64,000 nt of DNA from Gaiellales bacterium (GCA_046330385.1 JAXLSV010000007.1:44718-108717); one strand, 5' to 3'. Shown: positions 12,077-52,822, counted from the first letter of the stretch. Numbers and translations are program-made. Notes: generated from the letters alone by a model not told the origin.

Positions 12077-13507
12077 ATGGTTTCTCATACCAATCCGGAT
12101 CAGGAGGGCTTCCCCGCCGATCTGCTCCTCGAGCCCGGACGGCCCGGTGGACGGGTGCGCGCCCGCGTCGAACAGGGAATCCGACGGGCGATCCAGGAAG
12201 GCAGGCTCCCCGGCGGGGCAACGCTGCCACCGACCCGGGTGCTCGCGGCCGAGCTCGGGATCTCGCGAAGCGCCGTCGTTGCCGCGTACGGGAACCTCGT
12301 CGACGCGGGGTACCTCGAGGCGCGCCAGGGGTCGGGGACACGCGTTCGCACGGAGGCGGCGGGGACGCCGTCGTCGCCCGTCCCGGAGGGCTCAATCCCT
12401 GCCGAGCCGGTGCGCGTCGTGATCGATCTCAACGGTGGCCAGCCGGCACCTGACCTCTTTCCGAGGATGCAGTGGCTGCGCCACTACCGAGCGGCCCTGG
12501 CCGAAACACCTGACCGCGAGCTCGACTACCCCGCGCTCGGCGGTGCCGCGAGGCTGAGGCGCGCGCTGCACGGATACCTCGGCCGCGTGCGCGGTGTGGC
12601 GACGACGCCCGAGCGGCTCGTCGTCGTCTCCGGGGTCACGCAAGGAGTGACGCTCGCGTGTCGCGCGCTCCGCAGGGCCGGCGCTCGTCGGGTCGCCGTC
12701 GAGGACCCGTGCTTCGCAGCCCACCGCATCGCGATCGGAATCGCAGGTCTCGAGGCCGTGCCGGTCGCCGTCGACGGGGGAGGGCCCTCGCTCGCTGAGC
12801 TCGAGCGCGCGGGTGCCGACGCCTTGCTCGTCGCCCCGGCGCACTCCTACCCGCTCGGCGCGGTCGTCGGCGACGAGCGCCGGCGGGCGCTGATCACCTG
12901 GGCGCGACGGCACGGCACCGTGATCCTCGAGGACGACTACGACGCCGAGTTCCGCTACGACCGGGTCCCGGTCGGGGCGCTGCAAGGACTTGCTCCCGAC
13001 TCGGTCGTCTACCTCGGCTCGGCCAGCAAGACCGTGAATCCAGCCCTCAGGCTCGGCTGGCTGGCGGCGCCGCCAGAGCTGGCGAACGTGATTGCGCTCG
13101 AGAAGAAGTACGACGACATGGGCCAGTCCCTCCTCGACCAGCACGCGTTCGCACGATTCGTCGAATCGGGCGACTTCACCCGCTACCTGCGCCGGGTGAG
13201 GCCGATCTACCGGGCGAAGCGAGCAGCGGCGATCGCCGCGGCTCGCCGGCACCTGCCGCACTGCTCGATCCAGGGCGCCGATGCCGGCCTCCACTTCCAC
13301 CTCACCCTGCCACCAGCCATCGACGAGGAGGGGCTCGTCAACCGACTCGCCGACCGGGGCGTTCGGCTCGACCCCGCCGCCCGGCACTGGGCCGACCCGG
13401 CGGACGCGCCCCCGTCGATCATCCTCGGCTTCGGCGCGTCGAGCGAGCAGCAAACGCGGCGCGGGATCGAGCTCCTCGCCGAGGAGGTCGCGCGGCCTGG
13501 ATCCTAG
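12077..13507 (+). CDS. MocR/GabR-family regulator (GntR wHTH plus PLP aminotransferase-like domain)
   Basis: LPPTRVLAAELGISR HTH, VEDPC, EDDYDAEFRY, SASKTVNPALRLGW (PLP Lys); ATG 12077. Confidence 0.9.
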   Translation: MVSHTNPDQEGFPADLLLEPGRPGGRVRARVEQGIRRAIQEGRLPGGATLPPTRVLAAELGISRSAVVAAYGNLVDAGYLEARQGSGTRVRTEAAGTPSSPVPEGSIPAEPVRVVIDLNGGQPAPDLFPRMQWLRHYRAALAETPDRELDYPALGGAARLRRALHGYLGRVRGVATTPERLVVVSGVTQGVTLACRALRRAGARRVAVEDPCFAAHRIAIGIAGLEAVPVAVDGGGPSLAELERAGADALLVAPAHSYPLGAVVGDERRRALITWARRHGTVILEDDYDAEFRYDRVPVGALQGLAPDSVVYLGSASKTVNPALRLGWLAAPPELANVIALEKKYDDMGQSLLDQHAFARFVESGDFTRYLRRVRPIYRAKRAAAIAAARRHLPHCSIQGADAGLHFHLTLPPAIDEEGLVNRLADRGVRLDPAARHWADPADAPPSIILGFGASSEQQTRRGIELLAEEVARPGS

Positions 13508-14820
13508 CCGCACCAGCTTGCGACGAACTGGGCGTACACCTGCGCTGCGAGCCGTAGCTGCTCGGTCTCCAGGTACTCGTTCGCGACGTGGCACTGCGCG
13601 AGCGCGCCGGGGCCGCAGATGATCCCCGGCAGCTTTCGCTCGCCGTACCAGGCAAGGTCGGTTGCCGCGCCGAAGCCCTGAGGCGTCGCATCGATACCCA
13701 CCGTCTCGAGACACGAGGAGAGGATCTGGACTGCCGGGTGGTCGAGCGGCACGTCGAGGGGCGGGAAGTAGATGTTCCCGAGCTTCCACGTGAACCGGGG
13801 TGGATGCTCACGGAGCCACGGGTCGACCGCTGCGACCGCGGCGACGACGTCCTCGACCTCCTGCTTGACGGTCTCGAACGTCTCGTCCGGGTAGAACCAG
13901 AGGTTGTACTCGACCGAGCAGTAGTTCGGGGCGGTGCCGGCGTTCGAGAAGAGGTTGAGACGGCCATCGGCGCCGCCTCCCGGGCCACCGACGATGATCG
14001 CCGGGGAGAGCGTGTTGAAGCCCGCCGGGAGGATCGGGTGAGCCTTGGCGTTCGCCCACGTGCGCTCGAGCTCCTGCAGGGCGACGATCAGCTTCACCAC
14101 CTTCTCGACCGCGTTGACCCCTCCCCCGCCCTTCCCGCCGGCGTGAATCGAGAGGTAGCGCGTCGACGCGTGCGCCTCGGAGCCCTCGACCTCGATCCGG
14201 AAATGGACGAGACCACCCTCGGCCGCACAGAGCCGTAGCTCCGTCGGCTCGAGGGACAGCGTGACGTCACACGGGTGGGAGCGCTCCACGATCTCCCGCG
14301 TGCCATTGCCCACCACCTCTTCGTCGCTGACGACGTGGAACACGATGTCGCCGCGCGGTACGAAGCCCGCGCCAAGCGCCGTCTTCACTGCCCACATCGC
14401 GGCCGCGAGCCCGCCCTTCATGTCGGTCGCGCCGCGCCCGTAAAGGCGCCCGTCGACGACCTCGCCCGCGAACGGGTCGTGGCTCCACGCCCCCCGATCA
14501 CCGACCGGGACGACGTCGACGTGCGCGTTGAACGCGACCGACCGACCACCACCCGTCCCACGCCGGCGCGCCACGATCACCGGGTGCGCGGGGAACGTCA
14601 TCGACGGCCCCACGTCCCACTGCTCGATCTCGAACCCGAGCGGCTCGAGGAAGCCGACGACGTGGTCGATGCACCTCCTCGCCTCGTCGGGGAAATGCGT
14701 GGCCTCCCTCGCCTGGCTCTCAGTCCGGAAGGCGACCAGCGTCCGCAGGAGCTCCTCGAGCCCTTCCTGCGTGCGCCCGACCGCATCGACGAGCGCTCCG
14801 TGATCGGCGGACGAGGTCAT
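13504..14820 (-). CDS. M20/ArgE-DapE family deacylase
   Basis: NAHVDVV, GRGATDMKGG, SDEE, CHVANE metal-binding motifs. Confidence 0.9.
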   Translation of the reverse strand: MTSSADHGALVDAVGRTQEGLEELLRTLVAFRTESQAREATHFPDEARRCIDHVVGFLEPLGFEIEQWDVGPSMTFPAHPVIVARRRGTGGGRSVAFNAHVDVVPVGDRGAWSHDPFAGEVVDGRLYGRGATDMKGGLAAAMWAVKTALGAGFVPRGDIVFHVVSDEEVVGNGTREIVERSHPCDVTLSLEPTELRLCAAEGGLVHFRIEVEGSEAHASTRYLSIHAGGKGGGGVNAVEKVVKLIVALQELERTWANAKAHPILPAGFNTLSPAIIVGGPGGGADGRLNLFSNAGTAPNYCSVEYNLWFYPDETFETVKQEVEDVVAAVAAVDPWLREHPPRFTWKLGNIYFPPLDVPLDHPAVQILSSCLETVGIDATPQGFGAATDLAWYGERKLPGIICGPGALAQCHVANEYLETEQLRLAAQVYAQFVASWCG

Positions 14821-15968
14821 TCGATGTCAGCCGGAACAGCCGGCGGCGCGGTCGCGGCGGCGGGAACGTCACGGCGGACGTTCCGGCCGTTGGAGCCGAA
14901 GAGATGCACGCGCGACGAGTCGAACCGGAGAGTGACGTTGTCGCCGGCGGCGACAGCAGTCTCGGGATCCGTCCGCACCTGCACCGTGGTTCCCCCCGCC
15001 TCGACGGTGAGGTACAGGTCCGACCCGACCGGTTCGAGGAACTCGACGCGCCCCGGGATCCCGCCCGGCTCGCCCGGAGCGGCGAGGCGGAAGTGCTCGG
15101 GTCGCAGCCCGAACGACACCTCGCCGTGGATCTCCGCCTCGTGCTCGAGCGCTGCCGGGTCGAGCACGTCCGCGGAGAGGTTGACGTCGACGCCGTTCCC
15201 GTGGAACCGCCAGCCACCGTCGACCTGCTCGAGCGCGCCGACGATCAGGTTCATCGGCGGCGCACCGAGGAACGTCGCGACGAAGACGTTCGCCGGCCGG
15301 CGATACACCTCGTTCGGTGTCCCGACCTGCTGGAGCACGCCGTGGTTCATCACCGCGATCCGGCTTCCCATCGTCATCGCCTCGACCTGGTCGTGAGTGA
15401 CGTACATCGTCGTGATCCCCAGTCGCTGATGCAGCTCGATCAGCTCGAGTCGGGTCTGCAGGCGGAGCTGGGCGTCGAGGTTGGAAAGCGGCTCGTCCAT
15501 CAGAAACGCATGCGGCTCGCGCACGATCGCCCTCGCGAGCGCGACCCGCTGCCGCTGACCGCCCGAGAGCTGTCCGGGCAGGCGCTGCAGCAGCTCCTCG
15601 AGCCCGAGGATCGCCGCGGCTCGCCGAATCGCCTCGTCGATCTCCGCTTTCGACTTCTTCGCGATCTGCAATGGGAAGGCGACGTTCTTGTACACCGTCA
15701 TGTGCGGATACAGCGCGTAGTTCTGGAACACCATCGCGACGTTCCGCTTCACGGGGTCGACGAAGTTCACGAGTCGACCGCCGATCACGATCTCGCCGGC
15801 GTCGGCGTCTTCGAGCCCGGCGACGACGCGGAGGATCGTGCTCTTGCCGCACCCGGACGGACCGAGCAGCACGAGGAACTCACCGTCCGCCACGCTGAGC
15901 GAGACGTTGCTGACGGCCTCGACCTTGCCGAACCGCTTGACCAGCTGCTTCACGACGATCTCAGCCAA
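14817..15968 (-). CDS. Carbohydrate ABC ATP-binding protein (MalK/MsmK type)
   Basis: GPSGCGKST, LSGGQRQRVALARA, MDEPLSNLDA, YVTHDQ. Confidence 0.95.
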   Translation of the reverse strand: MAEIVVKQLVKRFGKVEAVSNVSLSVADGEFLVLLGPSGCGKSTILRVVAGLEDADAGEIVIGGRLVNFVDPVKRNVAMVFQNYALYPHMTVYKNVAFPLQIAKKSKAEIDEAIRRAAAILGLEELLQRLPGQLSGGQRQRVALARAIVREPHAFLMDEPLSNLDAQLRLQTRLELIELHQRLGITTMYVTHDQVEAMTMGSRIAVMNHGVLQQVGTPNEVYRRPANVFVATFLGAPPMNLIVGALEQVDGGWRFHGNGVDVNLSADVLDPAALEHEAEIHGEVSFGLRPEHFRLAAPGEPGGIPGRVEFLEPVGSDLYLTVEAGGTTVQVRTDPETAVAAGDNVTLRFDSSRVHLFGSNGRNVRRDVPAAATAPPAVPADIE

Positions 15969-16001
15969 CGCGTCTCCTTCGGGTCGACCACGACATCCGG
16001 G

Positions 16002-16919
16002 TCACTGCTTCAGCGCCCCTGCCATCGACGCCTGGACGAACCACTTCTGGAAGACCAGGAAGATGAGGATGACCGGCACCATCGTCATCACCGCCGCCGC
16101 GGAGATCACGCCCCAGTTGGTCACGAACTGACCCTGCAGCGACGCGATGCCCACGGTGAGCGTCTTCATGTCGTCGGAGGTCGTGATCACGAGCGGCCAG
16201 AGGAAGTTCACCCATTGGAACATGAACGTGAAGATCCCGAGCACGACGATCGCCGGCTTCATGAGGGGCAGGACGATCCGACGGAAGATCAGCCACTCGC
16301 CGGCCCCATCGAGCCGAGCCGCCTCGACGAGCCCCTCGGGAAGCGTCCCGATGAACTGGCGCATCATGAAGACCCCGAGCGGGCTCACGACCATCGGCAG
16401 GATCATCGCCGGGTACGTGTTGATGCCGCTGTGGGTCCAACCCGGCAGGTGCGCGATCATGATGTAGAGGGGCGCGATCAGCACGGCGGTCGGGATCATC
16501 AGCGTCGAGAGGACGAGCGCGAAGAGCAGCGTTCGCCCCGGGAAGCGCAGGCGCGCGAACGCATACCCCGCCATCGCGTCGATCACGAGCGTGATCAGCG
16601 TCACGGTCGTTGCGAACACGAGCGTGTTGAGCGCCCAGCGCAGGTAGCTCGTCTCGTGGAGGATCGTGCTGAAGTTGCCCCAGAAGAGCGAGTTCGGAAT
16701 CCAGTCGGGCGGGTAGCTGAAGAGCTCGTAGCTCTCGCGAAAGGACGGCGAGAGGAGATAAAGGAACGGGCCGACCGCGATCACCGCGAAGACCGCGAGG
16801 ATCACGTATGCGATCACCGCCTTGGCGATGTGCACGACCCGATGCCGCCGCGCCGCGGCCGCGTACTCGGCGTGGGCCGGCGTGCCGCCGTCGAACGTGT
16901 CGGAGCCCGGGGTCGACAT
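16002..16919 (-). CDS. Carbohydrate ABC permease (MalG-like)
   Basis: AGYAFARLRFPGR, EAARLDGA motif. Confidence 0.9.
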   Translation of the reverse strand: MSTPGSDTFDGGTPAHAEYAAAARRHRVVHIAKAVIAYVILAVFAVIAVGPFLYLLSPSFRESYELFSYPPDWIPNSLFWGNFSTILHETSYLRWALNTLVFATTVTLITLVIDAMAGYAFARLRFPGRTLLFALVLSTLMIPTAVLIAPLYIMIAHLPGWTHSGINTYPAMILPMVVSPLGVFMMRQFIGTLPEGLVEAARLDGAGEWLIFRRIVLPLMKPAIVVLGIFTFMFQWVNFLWPLVITTSDDMKTLTVGIASLQGQFVTNWGVISAAAVMTMVPVILIFLVFQKWFVQASMAGALKQ

Positions 16920-17876
16920 CTACGACGCCCTCTCGCGGCGTCGGTCGGACAGCACCCAGAAGGACACCGCCGTGAGCGCGAGGATGATCAGAAGAAGCAA
17001 CACCGCCGCGGCATAGCCCTGGCCCGTCTCCTGGAACTGGAAGAGTCGCCTCCAGATGAACCACACGAGCGTCGAGGTCGACTCGTTCGGGCCGCCCTGG
17101 GTCAGGACGTACACGGTGTCGAACACCTGGAAGTTGGCGATGATCGCGATCACGACCGCGAACAGGAGCATCGGCTTCAGCAGCGGCAGGGTCACGCGCC
17201 GGAAGCGGTAGAGCCCGCGCGCACCGTCGACGCGTGCCGCGTCGTTCAGCTCGTCCGGGATGCTCTGGAGGCTGGCGAGGAAGTAGAGGGTCCAGAAGCC
17301 GAGCCCACGCCAGACCTCGGCAAGGACGATCGTCAGCAGCGCGAGCGTGCCGCTGCCGAGGATGTTGAGCCGGTCGAGACCGACGGCGTCGAATGTGAGG
17401 TTGATCAGACCGAAGTCGAAGTTGGTGAGGAACTGCCAGATCAGCCCGACGAGGACGGCCGGCGCGAGGAGCGGCACGTAGAGGGCGAGCTTGAAGACGT
17501 TGCTCCCCTTCCGGTACCGGTTGAGGAGGAGGGCGAGGAACAGCCCGAGGATGAAGACGAGGAAGATCGCCTGGACGACGTACAGCACCGTGTTCCGGAT
17601 CGACGCCGTCAGCTCGGAGTCGTCGGCGATCGTCCGCCAGTTGTCGAGACCGACGTACCGCGCCTCGTCGAGGATGCCCCCCTGGTTGAAGCTGAGCCAG
17701 ATCGACCAGATCGTGGGGGCGAGCAGGAAGACGAGGAAGGGGATGAAGTACGGCAGGAGGAAGAGGTAGCCCTTGACGCTGCGCCGGAGCCGGTACCGTG
17801 AGCGCGCTCGCCGGTACTCCGCTTCGCTCAGTGTCAGCTGATCCCAGGTCTCCCTCGAAGCTCCTGTCGCCTCCAT
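16920..17876 (-). CDS. Carbohydrate ABC permease (MalF-like)
   Basis: YVGLDNW, QSIPDELNDAARVDGA, QGGPNEST. Confidence 0.9.
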   Translation of the reverse strand: MEATGASRETWDQLTLSEAEYRRARSRYRLRRSVKGYLFLLPYFIPFLVFLLAPTIWSIWLSFNQGGILDEARYVGLDNWRTIADDSELTASIRNTVLYVVQAIFLVFILGLFLALLLNRYRKGSNVFKLALYVPLLAPAVLVGLIWQFLTNFDFGLINLTFDAVGLDRLNILGSGTLALLTIVLAEVWRGLGFWTLYFLASLQSIPDELNDAARVDGARGLYRFRRVTLPLLKPMLLFAVVIAIIANFQVFDTVYVLTQGGPNESTSTLVWFIWRRLFQFQETGQGYAAAVLLLLIILALTAVSFWVLSDRRRERAS

Positions 17877-17903
17877 CCCCTTCGCTCGTCCAGTCCCGTC
17901 GTC

Positions 17904-19274
17904 CTAGCTCTTCAGGATCCGGGTGCCTTCGGCCTGCGCCTTCGCCATCGCGGCCCTCACCGTGCTCTTGCCGCTGGCCGCCGCCTCGATCGCCTTTCCG
18001 TAGACGCTCGTCAGCTGGGCCATCTTCGGGTGGGTCGGAAGCCCGTCCCAACCCTTCAGGACGTAGCTGTTGACGCGTGCGACCTGAGCGTCACCCTTCG
18101 AGGTGTTGACGTCCTTACGCACCGGCGCCCACCCGTAGTGCGCACCGAACTCGTTCGCGAACGCCGGGGACGAGAGGAACTTGACGAGCTCCCACGCCGC
18201 ATCCTTGTTCTTGCTCTTCGAGGCCATCACCCAGTGGCCGGTGGTCGAGAAGATCGTCCGCTTGCTGCCGAGCCCGACCGGGTTGACGAAGTTCCACTTG
18301 AACGGGAGCTTCTCCTGACGGAACACGCTGAGCCGGAGCGGCTCGTCCTGGAGGAACGCCAGGCGCCCGCCCTTGAACAGCGCGACGCCGCCTTCGCGGT
18401 CGTACTGCCCGACGGGCGGCTGCACCTTGTGCTTGAGGATCAGGTCGACGACGGCCTGCGTCCCCGCGATCACGCCCGGGTTCGTGAACGTCACACGCTT
18501 GCCGTCCTTCGAGATGATGTCCGAGCCCAGGTTGTGGATGTAGCAGTAGTTGAAGTACCAGGTGAAGTCCTTGTCGGTCATCGGGGTGTTGAAGCCCCAG
18601 ACGTTCGGGGGATCCGCGACCTTCAGGCACGCCTGCGCCAGCTCGGCCATCGTCGTCGGGATCTTGGTGACCCCAGCCTTCTTGAGCAGGTCCTCGTTGT
18701 AGTACATGACCGTGCCGCCGATGATGCACGGCAGGCCCCAGAGCTTGCCCTGATACGTGCTCTTCCTGAACGTGTTCGGGATGAACTTGGCGGCGGTTGC
18801 CTTGTACGCCGGCGAGTCGAGCCACTTCTTCGTGTTCAGGACCTCGAGCACGCCCTTCGTCCCGAGGTTCGTGAGATCCGTGCTCGTCTGGTAGCTGACG
18901 TCATACGGGTTCGGCCCCGCGTAGTTCGACGCGTACGACGCCTGCTCGACGTTCCACGGCACGATCGTGTGCTTGACGTTGATGCCGGTCTTCGACGTGA
19001 ACGACTTGAGGAGCTTGCCGATCACATCCTTCTCATCTGTCCCGAACGGCGCCTTGGCAAAGGAGAGCTCCACTCCTTCGAACGGGCCACGCGCACGGTC
19101 GCGGATGCTGATCCGCGTCCCCGCTGCGGAGGCCTCGCCGATCAGCACCCCTGCGCTCGGCAGCGCAAGCCCGACGGCCGCCGCCTTCTTGAGGAACTGG
19201 CGTCGGCTCTCGCCACCAGTCCCCTCGGTCACGGGTGCGTCGCCCCCGTGGCTGGAGTCGTCCATTGCGCGCAA
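17904..19274 (-). CDS. Carbohydrate ABC substrate-binding protein with Tat signal
   Basis: SRRQFLKK twin-arginine motif; MYYNEDLLKKAG family 1 binding-protein signature. Confidence 0.9.
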   Translation of the reverse strand: MRAMDDSSHGGDAPVTEGTGGESRRQFLKKAAAVGLALPSAGVLIGEASAAGTRISIRDRARGPFEGVELSFAKAPFGTDEKDVIGKLLKSFTSKTGINVKHTIVPWNVEQASYASNYAGPNPYDVSYQTSTDLTNLGTKGVLEVLNTKKWLDSPAYKATAAKFIPNTFRKSTYQGKLWGLPCIIGGTVMYYNEDLLKKAGVTKIPTTMAELAQACLKVADPPNVWGFNTPMTDKDFTWYFNYCYIHNLGSDIISKDGKRVTFTNPGVIAGTQAVVDLILKHKVQPPVGQYDREGGVALFKGGRLAFLQDEPLRLSVFRQEKLPFKWNFVNPVGLGSKRTIFSTTGHWVMASKSKNKDAAWELVKFLSSPAFANEFGAHYGWAPVRKDVNTSKGDAQVARVNSYVLKGWDGLPTHPKMAQLTSVYGKAIEAAASGKSTVRAAMAKAQAEGTRILKS

Positions 19275-19419
19275 AACCTCCTCCTTCGTGTGCGGAGTAG
19301 ACGGGCCCGCATGTGCGAATCGCCCGTTGAGACGTCATCCTATTCACAGATATGCAGAGATTTCAAGCAAGCTCCTGTGGCGGGAAACCTCCTTAACGGA
19401 GAGCTGAGCGTCTTGGTCG

Positions 19420-19432
19420 CTATAGCCTATAT
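19420..19432 (-). promoter_or_regulatory. Palindromic site CTATAGCCTATAT over a putative -10 (TAGGCT)
   Basis: One mismatch to CTATA-N3-TATAG, upstream of the sugar ABC operon. Confidence 0.55.
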
Positions 19433-19515
19433 GCCTGGCGGTCGCGCGGCCAGCGCGCGTGACGGCCTCGGCCATCCGGCCAATCGGCGGCGGGCGCGCA
19501 GATGCGGCCGCGGTG

Positions 19516-20783: not shown

Positions 20784-21656
20784 ATGGCGACACTCCTCAT
20801 CGGCTACGACACCGAGTCAGCCGCGGTGGGTGAAGGGCTCGCGCGGTTCATCGGCCCGGACGTCCCGCAGTACCTCTGCGCCCTCGACCCCGAGACGACG
20901 CGCCGCGGGGTCTCGCTGCTCCGCAAGCTGCACGAGGAGCTCGAGGCGCCGTGCACGTTCTTCCTCTGCGGACGGACGCTGCTCCACGCGCTCGACGCGA
21001 TCGAGCCGCTCGCCGCCTCGGAGCTGTTCGATCTCCAGCAGCACACCTACAGCCACGTCGTGTTCCGGGAGGTGCACTATCAGCCGCTCGGCTCCGACGC
21101 GCCGGAGGCGGTGCTCGCCGAAACGCCGCCGGTCGCGCTCCGGGAGGAGCTCGCCGTCACGGCAGAGCTGATCCGCAAGTACCTCGGGCGCGAGTGCATC
21201 GGGCTGCGAACACCGTTCGGCTACTACCGCGGTCTGCGAGGCCGCCCCGACCTCCTCGGGATCATCCAGGAGACCGGGCACCGCTTCGTGACCTCCTGGG
21301 GCCGCAACGAGGAGAACGGCAACCCGACCCCGTGGGTGCAGCCGTTCACCTACGACGAGGAGGGCTTCCCGGGGCTGCTCGAGATCCCGTTCCAGTTCTG
21401 GCTCGACGGGATCTGGTTCGACGCCCACGGGTACGACCAGGGTGCCGGCTTCCGCGCCGCGCTCGAGGGCGCGATCGACGAGATCGCCGACACCGATACC
21501 GTCTTCGCGACGGCGTTCCACGAGTGGTGCGCGGTCGAGGCGAACGAGGAGGGCACCGGCTGGATCCGCGGGCTGATCGAGCACGCGCGACGCCGCGACG
21601 TCACGGTGATGAGCTACGCCGACTACTGGAGGAGCGTCACGGCCGGCGTCGCGTGA
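20784..21656 (+). CDS. Polysaccharide deacetylase (NodB/CE4-like) family amidohydrolase
   Basis: GYDTE, QQHTYSH, GLRTPFG, LLEIP motifs. Confidence 0.75.
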   Translation: MATLLIGYDTESAAVGEGLARFIGPDVPQYLCALDPETTRRGVSLLRKLHEELEAPCTFFLCGRTLLHALDAIEPLAASELFDLQQHTYSHVVFREVHYQPLGSDAPEAVLAETPPVALREELAVTAELIRKYLGRECIGLRTPFGYYRGLRGRPDLLGIIQETGHRFVTSWGRNEENGNPTPWVQPFTYDEEGFPGLLEIPFQFWLDGIWFDAHGYDQGAGFRAALEGAIDEIADTDTVFATAFHEWCAVEANEEGTGWIRGLIEHARRRDVTVMSYADYWRSVTAGVA

Positions 21657-24855: not shown

Positions 24856-25733
24856 AGCGTCAGGCGCAGCTGGCGGCCGAGGCGATCGGCGAGCCCGTCG
24901 CCGACCATGCTGAACGCGACCCCGAGCGCGACGATGACGAGACCGGGGATCGTCGCCACCCACCATGCCGTGCGCAGCACGCTCTGCCCCTCGGCGACCA
25001 TCGCGCCAAGCTCGGCGGTGGGCGGCTGCACGCCGAGCCCGAGGTACGAGAGGCTGGCAAGGAGGAGCAGGTTGAGAACGAGGTCGGCCGCGGAGAACAC
25101 GACGTTCGAGCGAAGCAAGTTGGGCATCGCGTGCCGGAAGACGAGTCGCGTCTGCGAGTAGCCGAGCGCGCGACCGGCGAGCATGAAGTCCTGCTCGCGG
25201 AGCACGAGCATCTCGCCGCGGGTGAGCCTCGCGTAGAGCGCCCAGCCTACCGCGAGCACGCCGATGTAGACGCCCTCGAGCCCGGCGCCGACGATCGCGA
25301 CGATCGCGATCATCAACACAAGGAACGGAAACGCGATCACGCCGTCGACGACGCGCATCGCGATCGCGTCCGCCCAGCCACCCCGGTACCCGGCGTAGGC
25401 GCCGATCACCATCCCCACGACGAGCGGCAGATACGTGATCACGAGGATCACCTGCAGGTCGAGGCCGAGTGCGTACAGCACGCGGGTCGCGATGTCACGG
25501 CCAAAGGTGTCCGTGCCGAAGGGGTGCGAGAGCGACGGCGCCTGCAGCCGCTGGAGGAGGTCGACCTCGTTGGGATCGTACGGCGACGCGAGCCGCCCGA
25601 CGACGGCGACGACGACCGCGAGCCCGACGAGCCCGGCGCCGAGATAGAAAGTCGTGTTCGACCAGCGCCGCTCGCGAAGCGCGAGGCGACGGAGCGCGGA
25701 CTCGTCCGGGAACCGATCGAGCGCGGTGCTCAC
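24852..25733 (-). CDS. Peptide ABC permease (OppC-like)
   Basis: HPFGTDTFGRD, RHAMPN, LSYLGLGVQPP; GTG 25733. Confidence 0.9.
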   Translation of the reverse strand: MSTALDRFPDESALRRLALRERRWSNTTFYLGAGLVGLAVVVAVVGRLASPYDPNEVDLLQRLQAPSLSHPFGTDTFGRDIATRVLYALGLDLQVILVITYLPLVVGMVIGAYAGYRGGWADAIAMRVVDGVIAFPFLVLMIAIVAIVGAGLEGVYIGVLAVGWALYARLTRGEMLVLREQDFMLAGRALGYSQTRLVFRHAMPNLLRSNVVFSAADLVLNLLLLASLSYLGLGVQPPTAELGAMVAEGQSVLRTAWWVATIPGLVIVALGVAFSMVGDGLADRLGRQLRLTL

Positions 25734-28355: not shown

Positions 28356-28380
28356 CTTCTACCTCCTCGCGATCGGTTGG

Positions 28381-32444: not shown

Positions 32445-32445
32445 T

Positions 32446-44641: not shown

Positions 44642-45406
44642 GTGGACCGACTCACTGACAGGGTCGCGATCGTGACGGGGGGAGCGCGCGGGATCGGGCG
44701 CGCCATTGTCGAGCGCCTCGCGGCCGAGGGCGCCGCGGTCGTGTTCTCGCAGCGCGCGACCGGCGAGGGTGAGGCGTTCGCGGAGTCGCTTGTCGCCTCG
44801 GGTCACCGGGCGGTGTTCGTGCAGGCCGACGTCCGGCGCGAGGACGATGCGGAGCGGCTCGTCGCCGAGGCGCACGCCCGCTTCGGCCGCGTCGACATCC
44901 TCTGCAACAACGCCGGTGTCGGGCTGCTCAAGGCGGTGACGGAGACCGAGCGCGACGAGTACGACACGGTGATGGACACCAACGTGTGGGGCATCTTCAC
45001 GTGCTCCCGCCATGCGCTTCCCCGGATGATCGCCTCGGGGGGCGGCTCGATCGTCAACGTCGGCTCGGTCGCAGCATCGGTCGGGTTCGCGACCGACGCC
45101 GCCTACTGCGCCTCGAAGGGCGCGGTGCATGCGCTGACCCGCCAGATGGCCCTCGACTACGCCACTCACGGCGTCCGCGTGAACTGCGTCGCACCGGGCT
45201 TCATCGAGACCGAGCAGGTGCGCGTGTACCTCGAGAGCCACGCCGACCCTGTCGCCGCCCGGGAGGAGGTCGTCGCCGCGCATCCGCTGGGGCGGCTCGG
45301 CCGCCCCGACGAAGTCGCCGGCGTGGTCGCGTTCCTCGCGTCCGACGACGCGTCGTTCGTGACCGGTGCGTCGTACGTCGTCGATGGCGGGCTGCTCGCG
45401 TGGTAG
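44642..45406 (+). CDS. Short-chain dehydrogenase/reductase
   Basis: TGGARGIG, NNAG, YCASK; GTG 44642. Confidence 0.9.
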   Translation: MDRLTDRVAIVTGGARGIGRAIVERLAAEGAAVVFSQRATGEGEAFAESLVASGHRAVFVQADVRREDDAERLVAEAHARFGRVDILCNNAGVGLLKAVTETERDEYDTVMDTNVWGIFTCSRHALPRMIASGGGSIVNVGSVAASVGFATDAAYCASKGAVHALTRQMALDYATHGVRVNCVAPGFIETEQVRVYLESHADPVAAREEVVAAHPLGRLGRPDEVAGVVAFLASDDASFVTGASYVVDGGLLAW

Positions 45407-45561
45407 CTGCCAGGTGACCCTGACGGACGGAGGACTGGAGTCGCAGTCGGAGCGATCCTGATCGCCTACTCGCCCGTGCCCGAGATCGTCGCGACGATCT
45501 CCGCGTCACCACCGGTTGCTCTGCGCGAGGAGCTCGCGCTCACCTCCCGCCTGCTGGTGTG

Positions 45562-45605
45562 CCCGGCTCCCGAACCCCCAGGAGGGATGGGGATCGGGAG
45601 CCGGG
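45562..45605. terminator. GC-rich hairpin between convergent SDR and PhyH genes
   Basis: CCCGGCTCCCGA...TCGGGAGCCGGG, a perfect 12-bp outer stem with further inner pairing. Confidence 0.6.
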
Positions 45606-47822: not shown

Positions 47823-48833
47823 TCATCGCAGGCTCTTCACGGCCGCGACGATCGCCTCCGCGGATGGGGCGTACGCCTGCTCCAGAGTCGGGCTGAACGG
47901 CACCGGCGAATGCGGCGCCGTCAGGCGCAGAACCGGGCCGTCGAGATGGTCGAAGGCCTGCTCCTGCACGACGGCGGCGATCTCCGAGGCGACGCTGCAC
48001 TGCGGTGGGCTCTCGTCGACGACTACCAGCAGGCCGGTTTTTGCAACCGACTCGACGATCGTGCGGGTGTCGAGGGGCGAGAGCGTCCTCGGGTCGATCA
48101 CCTCGGCCTCGATTCCCGAGGAGGAGAGCGTTTCCGCCGCGGCGAGCGCGCGGTCGACCATCGCCGCGATCGCGACGATCGTGACGTCGCCCCCCTCGCG
48201 TCGCACGTCCGCGACCCCGAGGGGGATTCGGTAGGGCTCCTCGGGAACCGGCCCCTTGGCGACGTACAGCTTCAGGTGCTCGAAGAACAGCACCGGGCCG
48301 TCGTCGGCGATCGCCTCGAGCAGGAGCCCTTTTGCGTCGTGCGGCGTCGAGGGAACGACGACCTTCAGCCCCGGCAGGTGTGTGTAGATCGAGTAGAGCG
48401 TCCCGGAGTGCTGGGCGGCGGCGCTGAGCCCACTCCCCATCGCGATACGGATCGTGAGCGGCAGCCGCACCTGGCCGCCGAACATGTAGGACATCTTCGC
48501 GGCCTGGTTGTAGATCTGATCGAACGCGAGCCCGGTGAAGTCTGCCCACATCGCATCGACCACGGGCCGCAGCCCGGCGGCGGCGGCACCCACCCCCGCG
48601 CCCACGAACCCTGCCTCGGAGATCGGCGTGTCGCGGACGCGGTCGGGCCCGAAGAGCGGGAAGAGGCTCTTCGTCGCGCCGAACGACCCGCCCATCGAGT
48701 TCTCCTTGTCACCGCCGAGCCCGGCGCCCCCGACGACGTCCTCACCCATCACGATCACCGTCGGGTCAGCCTCCATCGCCTGCCGCATCGCCTCTCCGAC
48801 GGCGTGGACGTACGAGAGCGTGCGCGCGGCCAC
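47823..48833 (-). CDS. acoB: 2-oxoacid (acetoin-type) dehydrogenase E1 beta subunit
   Basis: MGEDV, DTPISEAG, AAQHS, EVIDPRTLSPLD. The symbol reflects the family only; substrate is not established. Confidence 0.85.
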   Translation of the reverse strand: MAARTLSYVHAVGEAMRQAMEADPTVIVMGEDVVGGAGLGGDKENSMGGSFGATKSLFPLFGPDRVRDTPISEAGFVGAGVGAAAAGLRPVVDAMWADFTGLAFDQIYNQAAKMSYMFGGQVRLPLTIRIAMGSGLSAAAQHSGTLYSIYTHLPGLKVVVPSTPHDAKGLLLEAIADDGPVLFFEHLKLYVAKGPVPEEPYRIPLGVADVRREGGDVTIVAIAAMVDRALAAAETLSSSGIEAEVIDPRTLSPLDTRTIVESVAKTGLLVVVDESPPQCSVASEIAAVVQEQAFDHLDGPVLRLTAPHSPVPFSPTLEQAYAPSAEAIVAAVKSLR

Positions 48834-49847
48834 TCAGGCCTCCCCGGTGACGAGCGGCTCGGGATAGGTGTATCGCGTGATCTCCGCGGGATCGGGGAAC
48901 GGACTTGCCTTCGCGTGCTCCACCGCCCGCCCGATCGCCGCCAGGATCTCGGCCTGGATCGCCTCGAGCTCGGCCGCGGCTGCGTCGCCGCCTTCGCTGG
49001 CGAGGCGGCTTCGAAGCGCCTCGAGCGCGTCGCGCGTGCGAGTCGAAGTGCGGTCGCCGTCGTCGCGGTACTGCTCGGGGTCGCCCTCGAAGTGCCCCAT
49101 GAAGCGGTAGGTCTTGACCTCGAGCAGCGTCGGCCCTTCGCCGGCCCGCGCCCGCGCGACCGCGGTGCGGGCCTTGTCGTACACATCGAGGACGTCGCTG
49201 CCGTCCGCGACGACACCGGGGATCCCGTACCCGGCCGCGCGCGACGCGATGTCGCGGACGCTCGTGGCGTACGCAACCGGCGTCGACTCGGCGAAGCCGT
49301 TGTTCTCGCAGACGAAGACAACCGGAAGCCGCCAGATCGCCGCCAGGTTGAGGCTCTCGTGGAGGACACCCTGGTTGGCGGCGCCGTCGCCGAAGAACGC
49401 TGCCGCGACGTGCCCGCTGCGCCGCACGCTCGCCGCGAGGGCGGCACCGGTGGCGAGCGCGATTCCGCCTCCGACGATCGCGTTCGCTCCGAGCATCCCG
49501 CGCGAGAAGTCCGCGATGTGCATCGACCCCCCGCGGCCGCGACAGAGCCCGCCCTCGCGACCATAGATCTCGGCCATCATCCCGTCGAGGTCGCAGCCCT
49601 TGGCGATGCAGTGCCCGTGCCCACGATGGGTGCTCGTGATGAAGTCGGCGTCGTCGAGGTGAGCGCACACGCCGGCGGCGACCGCTTCTTCCCCCACGTA
49701 CATGTGAACGAACCCAGGGATCTCTCCCGTCCGGAACTCGCGTGCGACACGCTCCTCGAAGAGCCGGATCGTGAGCATCGTGCGGTACAGGCCGAGCAGG
49801 GTCTCGGGCGAGACGACCACCTCTCGGCTCCCGTTGACGTCGGTCAT
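48834..49847 (-). CDS. acoA: 2-oxoacid (acetoin-type) dehydrogenase E1 alpha subunit
   Basis: PGFVHMYVGEEA, STHRGHGH, GDGAANQG...ENN TPP motif, TYRFMGHFEGD; ATG 49847. Confidence 0.85.
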   Translation of the reverse strand: MTDVNGSREVVVSPETLLGLYRTMLTIRLFEERVAREFRTGEIPGFVHMYVGEEAVAAGVCAHLDDADFITSTHRGHGHCIAKGCDLDGMMAEIYGREGGLCRGRGGSMHIADFSRGMLGANAIVGGGIALATGAALAASVRRSGHVAAAFFGDGAANQGVLHESLNLAAIWRLPVVFVCENNGFAESTPVAYATSVRDIASRAAGYGIPGVVADGSDVLDVYDKARTAVARARAGEGPTLLEVKTYRFMGHFEGDPEQYRDDGDRTSTRTRDALEALRSRLASEGGDAAAAELEAIQAEILAAIGRAVEHAKASPFPDPAEITRYTYPEPLVTGEA

Positions 49848-51085
49848 GCGCGATCCGCCAGCCCGGCGATCCGCCGCTCGAGCGTCGTGAGAAACGCGGC
49901 AGCGGGGCCTCCGTCGATTGCCCGGTGATCGAACGTCAGGCACGCCTGGAGCGTCGGGCGAATCGCGATCCCGTCGCCGACGACGACGGGGCGCTGCCGG
50001 ATCCTGCCAATCCAGAGGATCGCGACCTGCGGTGGATTCAGGATCGCGGTCGTGATGTCGACGTTGTGGATCCCGCCGTTCGAGAGGGTGAACGTCCCGC
50101 CCTTGACGTCCTCGAGGGTCAGCGTCCCGGCCCGCCCGCGTTCCGCGACGTCGGCGACCCGCGCGTGGATCTCCGTGAGCGACAGCGTGTCGGCGCGATG
50201 AACGACCGGGACGAGCAGCCCGTCGGGGGTGTCGACGGCGACACCGATGTTGAGGTCAGCGAGAACCTCGATCTCGTCGCCCGCGACACGTGCGTTCAGC
50301 AGCGGGTGCTCGCGCAGTGCGCCGGCGATGAGCTCGACGACGATTGCCGTGACCCCCACGCGCTGCGGCTCGGCGGCGGCGGCAAGGCGCTCACGGAGAT
50401 CGACGATCGGCTTCGTGTCGATTTCGAGCACCGACGTCAGCTGCGCAGCCGTCTGCAGGCTCGAGACCATCCGCTGCGCGATCGTGCGCCGCCGCCCGCG
50501 CAGCGGGATGCGCTCGGCGATCTCGGGCTCGCCTGGCGTGGTCGCGGGCACGGGCGGCGCGGCGGCCGGCCGAGCGGCAGGCGTCGCCGCGATGACGTCG
50601 CGCTCGAGGATGCGCCCGCCCGGGCCCGAGCCCTCGATCTGCGAGACGACCTCGGGTGGAAGCCCGAGCCTGCGGAGCGCGCTTCGCGCCCGCGGCGACA
50701 CGGGCGGCCCGGCGCGACGGCCCGAGACGCTCAGACCGACCGCAGCGGACAAGGGTGAGGTTGGCATCACGGCCGGCTCGTCGCCGTCCTGGACTTCCTC
50801 TGAGCTGCCACCGGCATCGCTCGACGCAAGCGCCTCGTACTCCTCGCGGGTGGTTGCGATCTTCCCCACAACCGCTCCGATCGGAACCGACGCACCCTCC
50901 GTGACGAGCTGGTGTAGCCAGCCGGAGCTCTCGGCCTCGACCTCGGCGGTGGTCTTGTCGGTCTCCATCTCGAGGACGACCGTGCCCTCCGCCACCTCAG
51001 CGCCTTCGGGGGCGCACCACGTGCTCAGCACGACGTCTTCCGTGTAGACGCCGAGCTTGGGCATGATCACGTTTTCAACCGGCAT
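49844..51085 (-). CDS. Dihydrolipoamide acyltransferase (E2)
   Basis: Lipoyl motif ETDKT, E3-binding GSGPGGRI, catalytic DHRAIDG. Confidence 0.9.
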   Translation of the reverse strand: MPVENVIMPKLGVYTEDVVLSTWCAPEGAEVAEGTVVLEMETDKTTAEVEAESSGWLHQLVTEGASVPIGAVVGKIATTREEYEALASSDAGGSSEEVQDGDEPAVMPTSPLSAAVGLSVSGRRAGPPVSPRARSALRRLGLPPEVVSQIEGSGPGGRILERDVIAATPAARPAAAPPVPATTPGEPEIAERIPLRGRRRTIAQRMVSSLQTAAQLTSVLEIDTKPIVDLRERLAAAAEPQRVGVTAIVVELIAGALREHPLLNARVAGDEIEVLADLNIGVAVDTPDGLLVPVVHRADTLSLTEIHARVADVAERGRAGTLTLEDVKGGTFTLSNGGIHNVDITTAILNPPQVAILWIGRIRQRPVVVGDGIAIRPTLQACLTFDHRAIDGGPAAAFLTTLERRIAGLADRA

Positions 51086-51105
51086 GGGCTGGATTCGCAG
51101 AACGG

Positions 51106-51138
51106 CTATAATCTATAGCGAGCGTTCCGCTCCGTCCA
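51106..51138 (-). promoter_or_regulatory. Promoter TGGACG-N17-TAGATT with palindrome CTATAATCTATAG
   Basis: Palindrome at 51106-51118, 20 bp upstream of the E2 start. Confidence 0.6.
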
Positions 51139-52130: not shown

Positions 52131-52822
52131 CCCTCCTCTTCCGCGTTGGCCGGATCGCCGACGAATGCCTCACGGACGGCATTCTCGGTTCGGTCGAGGT
52201 GACGCTCGAGGACGGCGGCGGCCCGAGGCCCGTCCCGCTCGACGCAGCACTCGAACAGCTCGTGGTGGTCGCGCATCGCCTCTTCGACGGTCCGCGAGAC
52301 GAAGAGCCTGACGTAACGCTGCGAGGCAACCCACAGCAGCTCGAGAACCCGCTGGATCCAGGCGGAGGCGCCAGGCTCGACCAACGCCCAGTGGAACGCC
52401 GCGTGTAGGTCCCAGAACGCCGGCGAGTCGTGGTTGTCCGACGCGCCGTCGAGTCGGGCGAGCGCGTCACGAACCTGCTCGATCTGCTCGTCGGTCATCG
52501 ACGCCACCGACCGCTCGATCACCGAGCACTCGATGATGCGCCGCAGGTCGTACACGCCGGCGAGATCCTCGAGGTCGACGCCGGCGGCGACGGCCGCGCG
52601 CTGGGGCTGGGCGATGATGAGACCCTCGGTCTCGAGCCGCCTGACCGCCTCCCGGATCGGGATGTGGCTGACCCCGAAGGACTTCTCGAGCGCGGCGACC
52701 TTGATCAGGTCACCAGGCTTGATCTCGCCGCCGAGCAATGCGTTGCGCAAGCGCTCTGTCACCGTGTCGACGACGCTCACCCGCTGGATGACCCCGTCCG
52801 AGATGCCCGATGGTTCGCTCAC
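52127..52822 (-). CDS. GntR-family regulator (FCD)
   Basis: LEKSFGVSHIPIREA HTH, HAAFHWAL, DHHELF...ERHL; start 52822 or 52867. Confidence 0.85.
   Translation of the reverse strand: MSEPSGISDGVIQRVSVVDTVTERLRNALLGGEIKPGDLIKVAALEKSFGVSHIPIREAVRRLETEGLIIAQPQRAAVAAGVDLEDLAGVYDLRRIIECSVIERSVASMTDEQIEQVRDALARLDGASDNHDSPAFWDLHAAFHWALVEPGASAWIQRVLELLWVASQRYVRLFVSRTVEEAMRDHHELFECCVERDGPRAAAVLERHLDRTENAVREAFVGDPANAEEEG

Follow-up and report, generated by a model that had tools for sequence, protein, structure and literature searches.

The window analysed here, a stretch of 64,000 nucleotides (64 kb) from an uncultured Gaiellales bacterium, an actinobacterium of soil and wastewater (GCA_046330385.1, JAXLSV010000007.1:44718-108717; G+C content about 70%), harbours an island of about 39 kb and about 35 genes (positions 13504-52867) in which a homologue of the ring-cleavage dioxygenase NicX stands together with three hydantoinase/oxoprolinase-type (Hyu) systems. 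Genes were called with a codon log-odds model followed by interval scheduling, and their products were annotated with Pfam and NCBIfam. All families named in a preliminary description of this DNA were recovered in this way, and its left edge at 13504 was correct, being the stop of the M20 metallohydrolase gene. The right edge had been placed at 52822, but the open reading frame (ORF) of the GntR2 regulator can be extended to 52867. Three features had not been listed before: a reductase of the zinc-dependent alcohol dehydrogenase/medium-chain dehydrogenase/reductase (MDR) family, a 65-aa Cys/His protein (sm65), and the remnant of a second carbohydrate esterase family 4 (CE4) gene.

The left part of the island is made up of the genes for M20, MalK, two permeases and the binding protein SBP1, a small cupin, the short-chain dehydrogenase/reductase (SDR) SDR1, a CE4 enzyme on the plus strand, and NicX. 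There follow, in the middle-left part, OppF, OppD, OppC, OppB, SBP5, HyuA1 and HyuB1, and then on the plus strand an RraA-like gene and a fused HyuAB. The middle-right part comprises a Rid gene, a pyridoxal 5'-phosphate (PLP) enzyme, RidA, the 65-aa protein, HyuB2, HyuA2, GntR1, DapA and, on the plus strand, SDR2; the right part holds PhyH, an alpha/beta-hydrolase-cupin fusion, E1 beta, E1 alpha, E2, the MDR reductase and GntR2 (Table 1). Within the operons most genes overlap by 4-8 nt or are separated by gaps of at most 64 nt.

Table 1. Genes and sequence elements of the island (positions counted from the first nucleotide of the window)
Feature	Position	Strand	Assignment and remarks
M20 metallohydrolase, ArgE/DapE family	13504..14820	-	Peptidase_M20 + M20_dimer; last gene of CUT1 operon
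CUT1 (sugar-type) ATP-binding cassette (ABC) importer	14817..19265	-	SBP_bac_1/8, BPD_transp_1 x2, ABC_tran + OB_MalK + TOBE_2
CUT1 parts			SBP1 17904-19265; permeases 16920-17876 and 16002-16919; MalK 14817-15968
Operator-like palindrome GCTATAGCCTATATG	19419..19433	.	154 nt upstream of SBP1 start codon
Small cupin	19516-19848	-	Cupin_2; overlaps SDR1 by 4 nt
SDR1	19845-20684	-	adh_short_C2
Conserved element TTATAAGATCATCAGAG	20741-20757		Between SDR1 and CE4 gene
CE4/NodB-like metallo-amidohydrolase (PDA)	20784..21656	+	Polysacc_deac_1 (PF01522), 26.7 vs cutoff 23.1; divergent from SDR1
NicX (g23, 357 aa)	21678..22751	-	Predicted non-haem Fe(II) ring-cleavage dioxygenase, 2,5-dihydroxypyridine 5,6-dioxygenase type; PDB 7cn3, PF26233
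Opp/Dpp importer, SBP5 and OppB, C, D, F	22814..28319	-	SBP_bac_5 (SBP5, 26736-28319), BPD_transp_1 x2, ABC_tran + oligo_HPY x2
Operator-like palindrome GCTATAACCTATAGT	28380..28394	.	61 nt upstream of SBP5 start; head of SBP5-Opp-NicX unit
HyuA1	28381-30435	-	Hydantoinase_A/B; accessory insert
HyuB1	30432-32444	-	Hydantoinase_A/B; accessory insert; conserved 80-aa N-terminal extension
RraA-like, class II pyruvate aldolase/oxaloacetate decarboxylase type	32371..33129	+	RraA-like, 109.6 bits
Fused HyuA-HyuB (HyuAB), 1281 aa, enzyme number 2	33139..36984	+	753 bits over full length vs PDB 7hk5, N-methylhydantoinase
RidA1, YjgF_endoribonc type	36993..37454	-	PF14588, 91 bits; last gene of DapA operon
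Fold-type-III PLP enzyme (g33)	37509..38567	-	Ala_racemase_N + D-ser_dehydrat
RidA2, RidA-type imine/enamine deaminase	38569..38946	-	Ribonuc_L-PSP, 83.6 bits
65-aa protein (sm65)	38948..39145	-	C-x2-C...C-x3-H, TRASH/treble-clef-like; 1 nt from HyuB2, 1 nt from RidA2
HyuB2	39147-40865	-	Pfam; conserved core
HyuA2	40862-42898	-	Pfam; conserved core
GntR1 (GntR/FCD)	42918-43670	-	GntR + FCD
DapA/DHDPS-family lyase	43663-44586	-	DHDPS; with GntR1 heads Hyu2-Rid-dehydratase operon
Conserved element CATATCATCCGAGATTACAAGTG	44615-44644		Abuts SDR2 GTG start codon
SDR2	44642..45406	+	Pfam; divergent from DapA
PDA2 remnant (second CE4 gene)	45461..45604	+	144 nt; tblastn, residues 98-141 of L156 PDA2, 52% identity, E=1.9e-6
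PhyH-family Fe/2-oxoglutarate (2OG) oxygenase	45661-46557	-	Pfam
Alpha/beta-hydrolase-cupin fusion	46554-47777	-	Pfam; GHSLG nucleophile elbow
2-Oxoacid dehydrogenase	47823..51085	-	Pfam; E2 49844-51085, E1 alpha 48834-49847, E1 beta 47823-48833
Perfect operator-like palindrome GCTATAATCTATAGC	51105..51119	.	20 nt upstream of E2 start codon
Zn-ADH/MDR-family reductase	51162-52130	-	Pfam; overlaps GntR2 by 4 nt
GntR2 (GntR/FCD)	52127-52867	-	Pfam; overlaps MDR reductase by 4 nt
Degenerate palindrome GCTAGACCCTATGGG	52956-52970		3 mismatches; about 90 nt upstream of GntR2

The proteins of the window were compared by tblastn with 66 genome loci seeded on HyuAB, with 80 metagenome loci seeded on a NicX alignment, and with loci fetched around individual homologues (L numbers below denote such loci). 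The nearest genomes are metagenome-assembled genomes (MAGs) labelled Gaiellales/Gaiella or, more widely, Thermoleophilia, Actinomycetes or Actinomycetota, with the fused HyuAB at 80% identity or less, and the only sequencing runs in which the window sequence itself was found are wastewater metagenome runs of 2024, which appear to be DNA; it belongs to a contig of 140 kb. Scattered homologues with no conserved neighbourhood, the outcome that the preliminary description had set against its own proposal, were not what we found. The gene set is shared by about 25 Gaiellales-type loci, which arrange it in at least five ways and differ in their flanks; no related locus contains a counterpart of any flanking gene of the window with an identity of 50% or higher. 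The simplest arrangement is a compact form of 21 kb (L076 and L078) with the order hydrolase-cupin, PhyH / SDR2 / DapA, GntR1, HyuA2, HyuB2, sm65, RidA2, PLP enzyme, RidA1, NicX, continuing with CE4 / SDR1, cupin, SBP1, permeases, MalK and M20. Read on the opposite strand, the window has exactly this compact order plus a 14.2-kb block (22814-36984) between RidA1 and NicX that contains OppFDCB, SBP5, HyuA1, HyuB1, RraA and HyuAB; beyond M20, L076 departs from the window. The insert varies among relatives, being HyuAB/RraA only, or with Opp, or with HyuA1B1, and other relatives have at the block site only RraA, a small protein and HyuAB. The Opp form of the window was seen only in L022 and L002; other relatives possess none or a different Opp (50-60% identity), in some of them nearby on the other side of NicX. 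The island is a conserved core of about 21-25 kb with a 14.2-kb accessory block between NicX and RidA1. The single 39-kb region proposed earlier thus stands as one conserved island, but it is not uniform.

At the right end, L155, L156 and L157 all share the order Amidase-GntR2-MDR-E2-E1a-E1b-hydrolase/cupin-PhyH-PDA2-SDR2-DapA, and past the amidase their flanks all differ (nitrate reductase, MFS plus MocR, and FKBP plus MacB, in one locus each). More distant loci hold parts of the set in other orders. L072 (NicX 61% identical) reads E2, E1a, E1b / CE4, amidase / PhyH, SDR, cupin / GntR, and continues with hydrolase, a separate cupin, PLP enzyme, NicX / SDR, M20 and MalK. The P0086 contig (NicX 64%) contains HyuA, Opp, MDR, two SDRs, NicX, an aminotransferase, amidase, M20 and the MalK importer, and L105 (NicX 57%) contains RraA, SDR, E1a, E1b ... 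Amidohydro_2, amidase, NicX ... SBP5, HyuB and Opp. As judged from their gene content, these three loci are overlapping subsets re-assembled in other orders. On this comparative evidence, the island is a real, Gaiellales lineage-specific unit and not a chance row of operons. In one relative (L067 8367-11059), the gene for the PLP enzyme is broken up into two ORFs, and NicX has lost the H318/D320 region at its C-terminus; these defects are either assembly errors or pseudogenisation.

A shared palindrome connects several parts of the island. The pattern GCTATA-N3-TATAGC (15 bp, at most two mismatches) was scanned over the 64 kb, and three sites were found versus 0.03 expected; none of 100 shuffles reached three. 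They are located in front of SBP1, SBP5 and E2. In relatives, the palindrome is found upstream of SBP1 (L007, L076), upstream of SBP5 (L022), between MDR and E2 (L030, with no mismatch, L155 and L157), upstream of GntR2 (L156), and in front of NicX, at a distance of 6-34 nt, in L002 and about 15 further loci. Because it follows NicX in whatever unit the gene resides, the palindrome connects this gene with the two importers and with the E2-E1-hydrolase/cupin-PhyH operon. Such a pattern suggests that the three palindrome-headed units form one regulon, and it is the strongest evidence for it here. GntR1 or GntR2, both of the FCD type, is the probable binder of the palindrome. In the compact loci NicX might be taken for the last gene of the Hyu2 operon, an assignment that is weakened by the operator which NicX retains there.

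Further elements were noted in the intergenic regions. The degenerate palindrome GCTAGACCCTATGGG upstream of GntR2 may be autoregulatory. A second candidate motif, TATMATCMGAGA, was discarded as not enriched (2 matches vs 4.9 expected). The elements CATATCATCCGAGATTACAAGTG and TTATAAGATCATCAGAG, each in a divergent intergenic region, are AT-rich, strongly conserved promoter or operator candidates and both contain ATCATC[CA]GAG; the former abuts the SDR2 start codon in 18 loci, and a promoter-like match at 44601-44629 lies upstream of SDR2, in agreement with a putative conserved near-leaderless promoter that is divergent from DapA. A sigma-70-like promoter match (19366-19337) is situated near the SBP1 palindrome. 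Scans for sigma-70 promoters and terminators gave counts at chance level, except for two well-placed promoter-like hits. An Rfam scan over the whole window revealed no riboswitch or other Rfam family, and therefore no clue to a ligand.

NicX matches the P. putida enzyme (PDB 7cn3) over its full length (residues 7-347, E=3.2e-92); the local Pfam copy yields no match for it, and a precomputed assignment puts it into family PF26233 (NicX). Its identity to the NicX encoded in the M. loti pML2037 nic cluster, a canonical one, is 53%, and homologues with 52-54% identity reside in nicAB-nicC-nicD-nicE-nicF-nicX clusters of rhizobial plasmids. A plasmid search with NicX returned canonical nic clusters only, which serve as a reference and not as analogues of the island. 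In NicX, the iron is held by His265, Ser302, His318 and Asp320, and Leu104, His105, Glu177 and His189 position the substrate (PMC7910607). All four iron ligands are kept in g23 and in every full-length Gaiellales-type homologue, and the gene formerly called NicX-like is a true NicX homologue. H189, R293 and L104 are retained as well, and H105 is replaced by Phe; the H105F variant is reported to be active (PMC7910607). At E177, g23, the Gaiellales type and many distant homologues carry Gln, and E308 is replaced by Leu in the Gaiellales type only. With its iron ligands intact and homologues of 52-62% identity in nicotinate and hydroxypyridine clusters, a pyridone-ring step is credible.

The homologue with 62% identity belongs to a hydroxypyridine-type cluster with a Mo-hydroxylase and a PEP-utilising enzyme (L068). 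This actinobacterial-type locus (L068 600-11060) encodes two NicX paralogues, both with Gln at position 177, together with the Mo-hydroxylase, a PEP-utiliser/PPDK_N pair, COXG, an alpha/beta-hydrolase and a maleate-isomerase-like gene. We take it to resemble the 3-hydroxypyridine (3hpd) system.

When the M. loti Nic proteins were searched against the window (tblastn), a weak NicD-like match was obtained for the hydrolase domain of the hydrolase-cupin fusion (25% identity, E=8e-10). This domain is 47-48% identical to a hydrolase encoded directly upstream of NicX in L071 and L090, and in L072 hydrolase and cupin are separate genes. The island shares with the nic clusters of P. putida KT2440 and rhizobial plasmids a NicX homologue with its iron ligands and kin of a NicX-linked alpha/beta-hydrolase; the amidase of the relatives, which is not in the window, could replace NicF. 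Unlike in the nic clusters, the hydrolase forms a fusion protein with a cupin, its gene being 24 kb away from that of NicX, and the island adds ABC importers, M20, CE4, PhyH, a complex resembling pyruvate dehydrogenase (PDH) and Hyu enzymes, none of which occurs in nic clusters.

The three Hyu systems score 300-594 bits with the Pfam models (Hydantoinase_A with N and C domains, Hydantoinase_B). HyuA-type proteins are characterised by the ATP motifs DxGGTxxD, DxGGT and GxxPGP, and the metal residues of the caprolactamase subunit CapB are D41, H99, D101 and H124 (PMC8453981). The ATP motifs (DVGGTFTD, DVGGTS and GASPGP in HyuA1) are intact in HyuA1, HyuA2 and the N-terminal half of HyuAB, and counterparts of the CapB residues are present in HyuB1, HyuB2 and the C-terminal half of HyuAB, the third being Glu for Asp. 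From these motifs ATP-dependent lactam opening is credible. All three systems have N-methylhydantoinase (PDB 7hk5) as best structural match, followed by caprolactamase and, much lower, the carboxylases; HyuA2/HyuB2 score 473/284 bits with 7hk5 and 394/258 bits with caprolactamase 6yra, and with the carboxylase structures 283 and 239 bits (HyuA2) and 115 and 72 bits (HyuB2). The paralogues are 37-52% identical to one another; they are therefore old and presumably act on different substrates. HyuB2 is the most conserved gene of the island (84-90% identity across relatives). The N-terminal extension of HyuB1 (32205-32444) is 67% conserved in L002 and L022 and does not occur in HyuB2, CapB or N-methylhydantoinase. 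The start of HyuB1 lies within a few bases of the probable RraA start, which suggests leaderless or overlapping divergent promoters.

The 65-aa protein is 60-78% conserved in relatives, with the family motif C-x2-C...C-x3-(H/C). In MAGs of Gaiellales and Spirochaetia (L009-L025, around 9770-9990), the gene that immediately precedes the fused HyuAB codes for a paralogue, and the family, 95 representative clusters among 1.84e9 proteins, always adjoins HyuA/HyuB genes. It matched no curated family, carboxylase gamma subunits included, and its TRASH-like Pfam hits are all sub-threshold. We propose that it is a small subunit of HyuA2B2. None of the 95 clusters is fused to a Hyu protein, which gives this idea no Rosetta-stone support. 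The Hyu enzymes thus resemble known HyuA/HyuB lactamases (7hk5, CapAB 6yra, 5-oxoprolinase, P. putida OplBA, IaaCE) in their split and fused forms, their ATP motifs and their CapB-type metal site. On the other hand, a 65-aa partner (for two systems, in relatives) or an extension as in HyuB1 is not mentioned in PMC8453981. Unlike the creatinine, caprolactam and indoleacetate clusters, the island places its Hyu genes in the context of Rid, dehydratase, DapA and NicX genes.

The PLP enzyme encoded in the Hyu2 operon had been described as a D-threonine aldolase, and overall it is indeed nearest to these aldolases (170 bits), the D-Ser-type dehydratases scoring lower (about 111 bits). Its motif RPHIKTHK with the PLP lysine is conserved, and PF14031 scores 73 bits. 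D-Threonine aldolases have His-x-Asp metal ligands and, in AxDTA, His193 as a candidate for the catalytic base (PMC4401734). In the island protein, however, the segment corresponding to His193 is deleted, and its PNHACG sequence is a His-x-Cys motif of the kind present in chicken D-serine dehydratase and D-threo-3-hydroxyaspartate dehydratase (its counterparts are YHAC in 3anu and NHAC in 3wqc), whereas the aldolases and BhcC have His-x-Asp. On account of these two features the aldolase assignment was rejected; a D-beta-hydroxy-alpha-amino-acid dehydratase is the more likely prediction. This role also fits better with the two Rid proteins that flank the enzyme. Among the matches listed, its homologues are relatives with at least 71% identity, without distant contexts. 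RidA1 is 78-90% conserved in relatives, and RidA2 reaches 92.6 with TIGR00004, below the cutoff of 106. The best structural matches of DapA are L-2-keto-3-deoxyarabonate dehydratase and the 2-keto-3-deoxygalactonate (KDGal) aldolase YagE. That of the RraA-like protein is 3noj (2e-19), a 4-carboxy-4-hydroxy-2-oxoadipate (CHA) aldolase/oxaloacetate decarboxylase; as the alignments of relatives begin at residue 27, its true start is probably near 32449.

With regard to import and deacylation, the M20 protein scores 249.6 with the ArgE/DapE deacylase model TIGR01910 (cutoff 217.6), and on account of this family an N-carbamoyl-amino-acid hydrolase was rejected. Its gene overlaps MalK by 4 nt and is co-conserved with MalK in L072 (64%) and on the P0086 contig. 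SBP1 carries a Tat signal (TIGR01409, 22.3 vs cutoff 16.7). SBP5-OppBCDF is followed by the co-directional NicX. SDR1 and the cupin stay together as a pair beside SBP1 throughout the Gaiellales-type loci, and also in L072 (51% and 52%). In the CE4-like protein the sequences GYDTE, QQHTxSH, RxPxG, WLD..WFD and FHxW are counterparts of the five CE4 motifs and are kept in 26 homologues; the metal motif HTYSH is invariant among them, and the first motif reads D-T-E for D-D. No PDB sequence matched this protein at E values up to 1, and an AlphaFold2 model made without an alignment was unusable (pLDDT 38). Of the 2-oxoacid dehydrogenase components, E1 beta exceeds the NCBIfam PDH cutoff (328.8 vs 321), E1 alpha falls just short of its own (350.7 vs 393.85), and E2, with lipoyl, E3-binding and catalytic domains, has SucB-type best hits below the cutoffs. 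No E3 gene is present in the island. The L072 counterparts of E1 alpha and E1 beta show 72% and 77% identity, those of L105 show 52% and 48%.

The flanks of the window look unrelated to the island. On the left are a MocR regulator, a cupin, a PNPOx-like protein, a DAO-type oxidoreductase and others; on the right a type III glutamine synthetase, a GAF-PucR regulator, a major facilitator superfamily (MFS) transporter, a kynureninase-like protein and a Phd/PIN pair. The glutamine synthetase (TIGR03105, 613 bits vs cutoff 469) occupies the position of the relatives' amidase and is followed by the GAF-PucR regulator, the MFS transporter, the kynureninase-like class V PLP enzyme and a PNPOx-like protein; this region (52992-59097) may be a separate nitrogen-compound module. 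The genes for the Phd/YefM antitoxin and the PIN-domain toxin (59280-59944) overlap by 4 nt. At the other end, positions 1-6253 encode a CUT2-type ABC importer (Peripla_BP_4, BPD_transp_2, double ABC ATPase), after which come MaoC-like, DUF, ChsH2-type OB/zinc-ribbon and thiolase-like genes that resemble acyl-CoA side-chain aldolase-lyase systems. Weak homologues of the CUT2 ABC genes (28-36% identity) are found near NicX in several proteobacterial loci (L146, L148).

Taken together, we consider it most likely, at somewhat better than even confidence, that the island imports and breaks down N-heterocycles through a NicX branch and a Hyu lactam module, as one lineage-specific catabolic unit. 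NicX, the NicD-like hydrolase, the Hyu systems and the PLP-Rid set are observed, and the following steps are deduced from the enzyme families. An N-heterocyclic compound or conjugate would be imported, and the M20 and CE4 enzymes would strip amide-linked groups. PhyH, the SDRs and the cupin could then oxidise or hydroxylate the ring to a 5-hydroxy-2-pyridone (2,5-dihydroxypyridine-type), which NicX would cleave to an N-formyl-maleamate-type product. The NicD-like hydrolase domain may deformylate this product, and in relatives the amidase would subsequently free ammonia. Finally, the C4 skeleton might be converted into oxaloacetate or pyruvate (SDR, RraA-type enzyme) and on to acetyl-CoA by the PDH-like E1/E2; an RraA-SDR-E1a-E1b run that recurs in L008 and L105 fits this last proposal.

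Embedded in the island is a second module, DapA-GntR1-HyuA2-HyuB2-sm65-RidA2-dehydratase-RidA1. Here, ATP would be spent to open a stable lactam- or hydantoin-type ring to a D-alpha-amino-beta-hydroxy acid, from which the His-x-Cys PLP dehydratase and the Rid deaminases would form a 2-oxo acid to be processed by the DapA-type lyase. The accessory block, with its dipeptide-type importer and two more ATP-dependent ring-opening enzymes, would probably widen the substrate range. More tentatively, the island could serve to mineralise saturated or hydroxylated N-heterocycles (lactams, or their conjugates with amino acids or sugars) by two coupled strategies, all under one palindrome-binding FCD regulator. 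One would be oxidative aromatisation to a 5-hydroxy-2-pyridone, without the known Mo or flavin hydroxylases, followed by cleavage by a NicX variant (Q177/L308); the other would be ATP-driven lactam opening by a three-subunit Hyu enzyme, with the 65-aa protein as a new TRASH-like zinc subunit, and this opening would supply the dehydratase and the Rid proteins. We regard this extended scheme as less likely than not. In the library searched, no paper was found that joins NicX or a dihydroxypyridine dioxygenase with a hydantoinase/oxoprolinase, or that links these families, in line with the earlier statement that the combination is not any described pathway. The novelty lies in a NicX cluster of non-canonical make-up that is combined with ring-opening enzymes dependent on ATP, which together have not been described as a pathway.

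A number of findings speak against an N-heterocycle pathway as outlined above. According to the tblastn search with the M. loti proteins, NicA, NicB, NicC, NicE and NicF are not in the 64-kb window, and no known enzyme producing 2,5-dihydroxypyridine (NicAB, NicC, HpaM or PicC types) occurs there. The exchanges E177Q and E308L affect second-shell positions, so that the substrate may differ from 2,5-dihydroxypyridine. The Hyu proteins reach 301-520 bits, near half of the caprolactamase equivalog cutoff of 1000 (NF050156, NF050157) and in this respect unlike the known lactamases; no specific NCBIfam equivalog scored above its cutoff. The Hyu2 operon includes a separate regulator gene and lacks the palindrome, so that it is linked to NicX by position only. 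Other NicX homologues (60% identity or less, other taxa) are without island neighbours, apart from the hydrolase in some loci; as distant homologues almost never have such neighbours, the deepest evidence comes from a few contigs of unnamed taxonomy. Moreover, the island seems to have lost genes in this copy. The amidase (PF01425) that precedes GntR2 in relatives was not detected in the window by tblastn. PDA2, intact after SDR2 in at least 12 relatives, is reduced to a remnant, which therefore indicates gene decay inside the island. Also missing from the window are the relatives' extra SDR between SBP1 and the cupin and their small Cys4 protein before HyuAB, the sm65 paralogue. With these four genes missing, the pathway may be incomplete or altered in this organism. 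Of the earlier idea of a funnel for pyridines, pyridones or lactams, which is thus supported in part, the pyridone and lactam steps hold as credible (iron ligands and cluster homologues of NicX, Hyu motifs), but a known enzyme making 2,5-dihydroxypyridine is lacking. An import of glycosides had also been suggested; no glycosidase was found, and the one feature in its favour is the sugar-type class of one importer.

Other readings of the gene set have to be weighed. Precedent for one of them is the ong pathway of Pseudoalteromonas for oxidised chitin (N-acetyl-glucosaminic acid), with the deacetylase OngB, the fold-III PLP deaminase OngC, the RidA protein OngD and KdgK (PMC9537276), in which OngB, OngC and OngD have been shown experimentally. 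By analogy, the island could degrade an N-acylated amino-sugar acid or D-alpha-amino-beta-hydroxy acid by way of sugar-type import, de-N-acylation by M20 and CE4, conversion by the PLP dehydratase and RidA to a 2-keto-3-deoxy acid, a DapA-type enzyme and an SDR/cupin pair like KduD/KduI, with NicX and Hyu catalysing side reactions or acting on a different ring substrate. The CUT1 sugar-type importer, the two kinds of deacylase, the dehydratase-type fold-III enzyme between its two Rid genes, and a DapA whose nearest solved kin are 2-keto-3-deoxy-sugar-acid enzymes are all consistent with it, and the logic of a de-N-acylase, a fold-III D-amino-acid dehydratase, a RidA and a 2-keto-3-deoxy-acid enzyme is common to both systems (placement of the OngC and OngD types being by Pfam/NCBIfam labels). 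The island differs in having M20 and CE4 instead of a D-aminoacylase of the OngB type, ABC importers instead of a solute:sodium symporter (SSS), and no 2-keto-3-deoxygluconate (KDG) kinase; sugar kinase, KDPG aldolase and glycoside hydrolase genes are likewise absent from it. Above all, the operator-linked NicX, the NicD-like hydrolase and the amidase would be left unexplained, as would the ATP-dependent ring-opening enzymes that are co-operonic with the dehydratase. We thus hold such a route to be unlikely.

It is also conceivable that the operons are functionally unrelated and are neighbours merely by the inherited gene order of close Gaiellales genomes. The strongest synteny is indeed found within one order, at 60-90% amino-acid identity, NicX homologues of other phyla are without the island genes, and the two separate regulators as well as the Hyu2 operon without palindrome speak in its favour. 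However, the set is conserved while the flanks are not, the internal rearrangements leave it together, and L072, L105 and the P0086 contig rebuild overlapping sets at 26-77% identity. In addition, the three operon heads with the common palindrome, conserved in relatives, are up to 35 kb apart, and accessory Hyu/Opp modules are always inserted at one internal site. Shared descent is therefore a weak explanation, and we rate it as quite unlikely.

A salvage route for hydantoins, diketopiperazines or pyroglutamyl lactams, with Dpp-type import, Hyu opening, M20 as carbamoylase or dipeptidase, and the dehydratase with Rid for the disposal of D-hydroxy amino acids, appears improbable. HyuAB plus an M20 hydrolase in one locus mirrors hyuABC(E) of Pseudomonas sp. 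NS671 (PMC8453981), the Opp/Dpp importer adjoins HyuA1B1, and N-methylhydantoinase is the nearest solved relative. Yet the island M20 is of the ArgE/DapE type, its top NCBIfam hits include neither a carbamoylase nor a hydantase model, and its gene goes with the sugar-type importer rather than with Hyu; in L072, a locus that shows no Hyu gene, it is conserved alongside NicX. Unlike the NS671 locus, the island has no hydantoin racemase, and it carries many additional genes for oxidative enzymes and lyases. Only two relatives share the Opp-HyuA1B1 module, which is accessory, and such a scheme would leave NicX, PhyH and E1/E2 unexplained. Finally, the Hyu enzymes could be ATP-dependent carboxylases of the acetone/acetophenone kind for which an enolisable ketone or a pyridone is the substrate, and the 65-aa protein their gamma subunit, but we hold this to be very improbable. 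Carboxylases, too, have an extra small subunit, and the tight linkage of the small Cys/His protein to Hyu in two phyla and the bicarbonate requirement of caprolactamase activity (PMC8453981) could be cited for it. Hydantoinase and lactamase structures, however, score far above carboxylases (473 and 394 vs 283 and 239 for HyuA2), and the 65-aa protein has no detectable similarity to any carboxylase gamma subunit. None of these readings accounts for the whole conserved set.

If the modules should prove to be unrelated, the finding would shrink to an ordinary annotation of known enzyme families. As a catabolic unit for N-heterocycles, on the other hand, the island would provide a candidate source of 2,5-dihydroxypyridine that is independent of the known hydroxylases, and new ATP-dependent ring-opening enzymes of biocatalytic interest (nylon monomers, hydantoins), possibly with a new small subunit. 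The defined pair of operator and regulator could help to find the inducer. Gaiellales, like other Thermoleophilia, turn up again in many metagenomes from soil and wastewater, and the orthologues that we found amount to hundreds of sequence clusters. The island therefore offers testable candidates for the turnover of stable lactams and pyridone rings in soil and wastewater.

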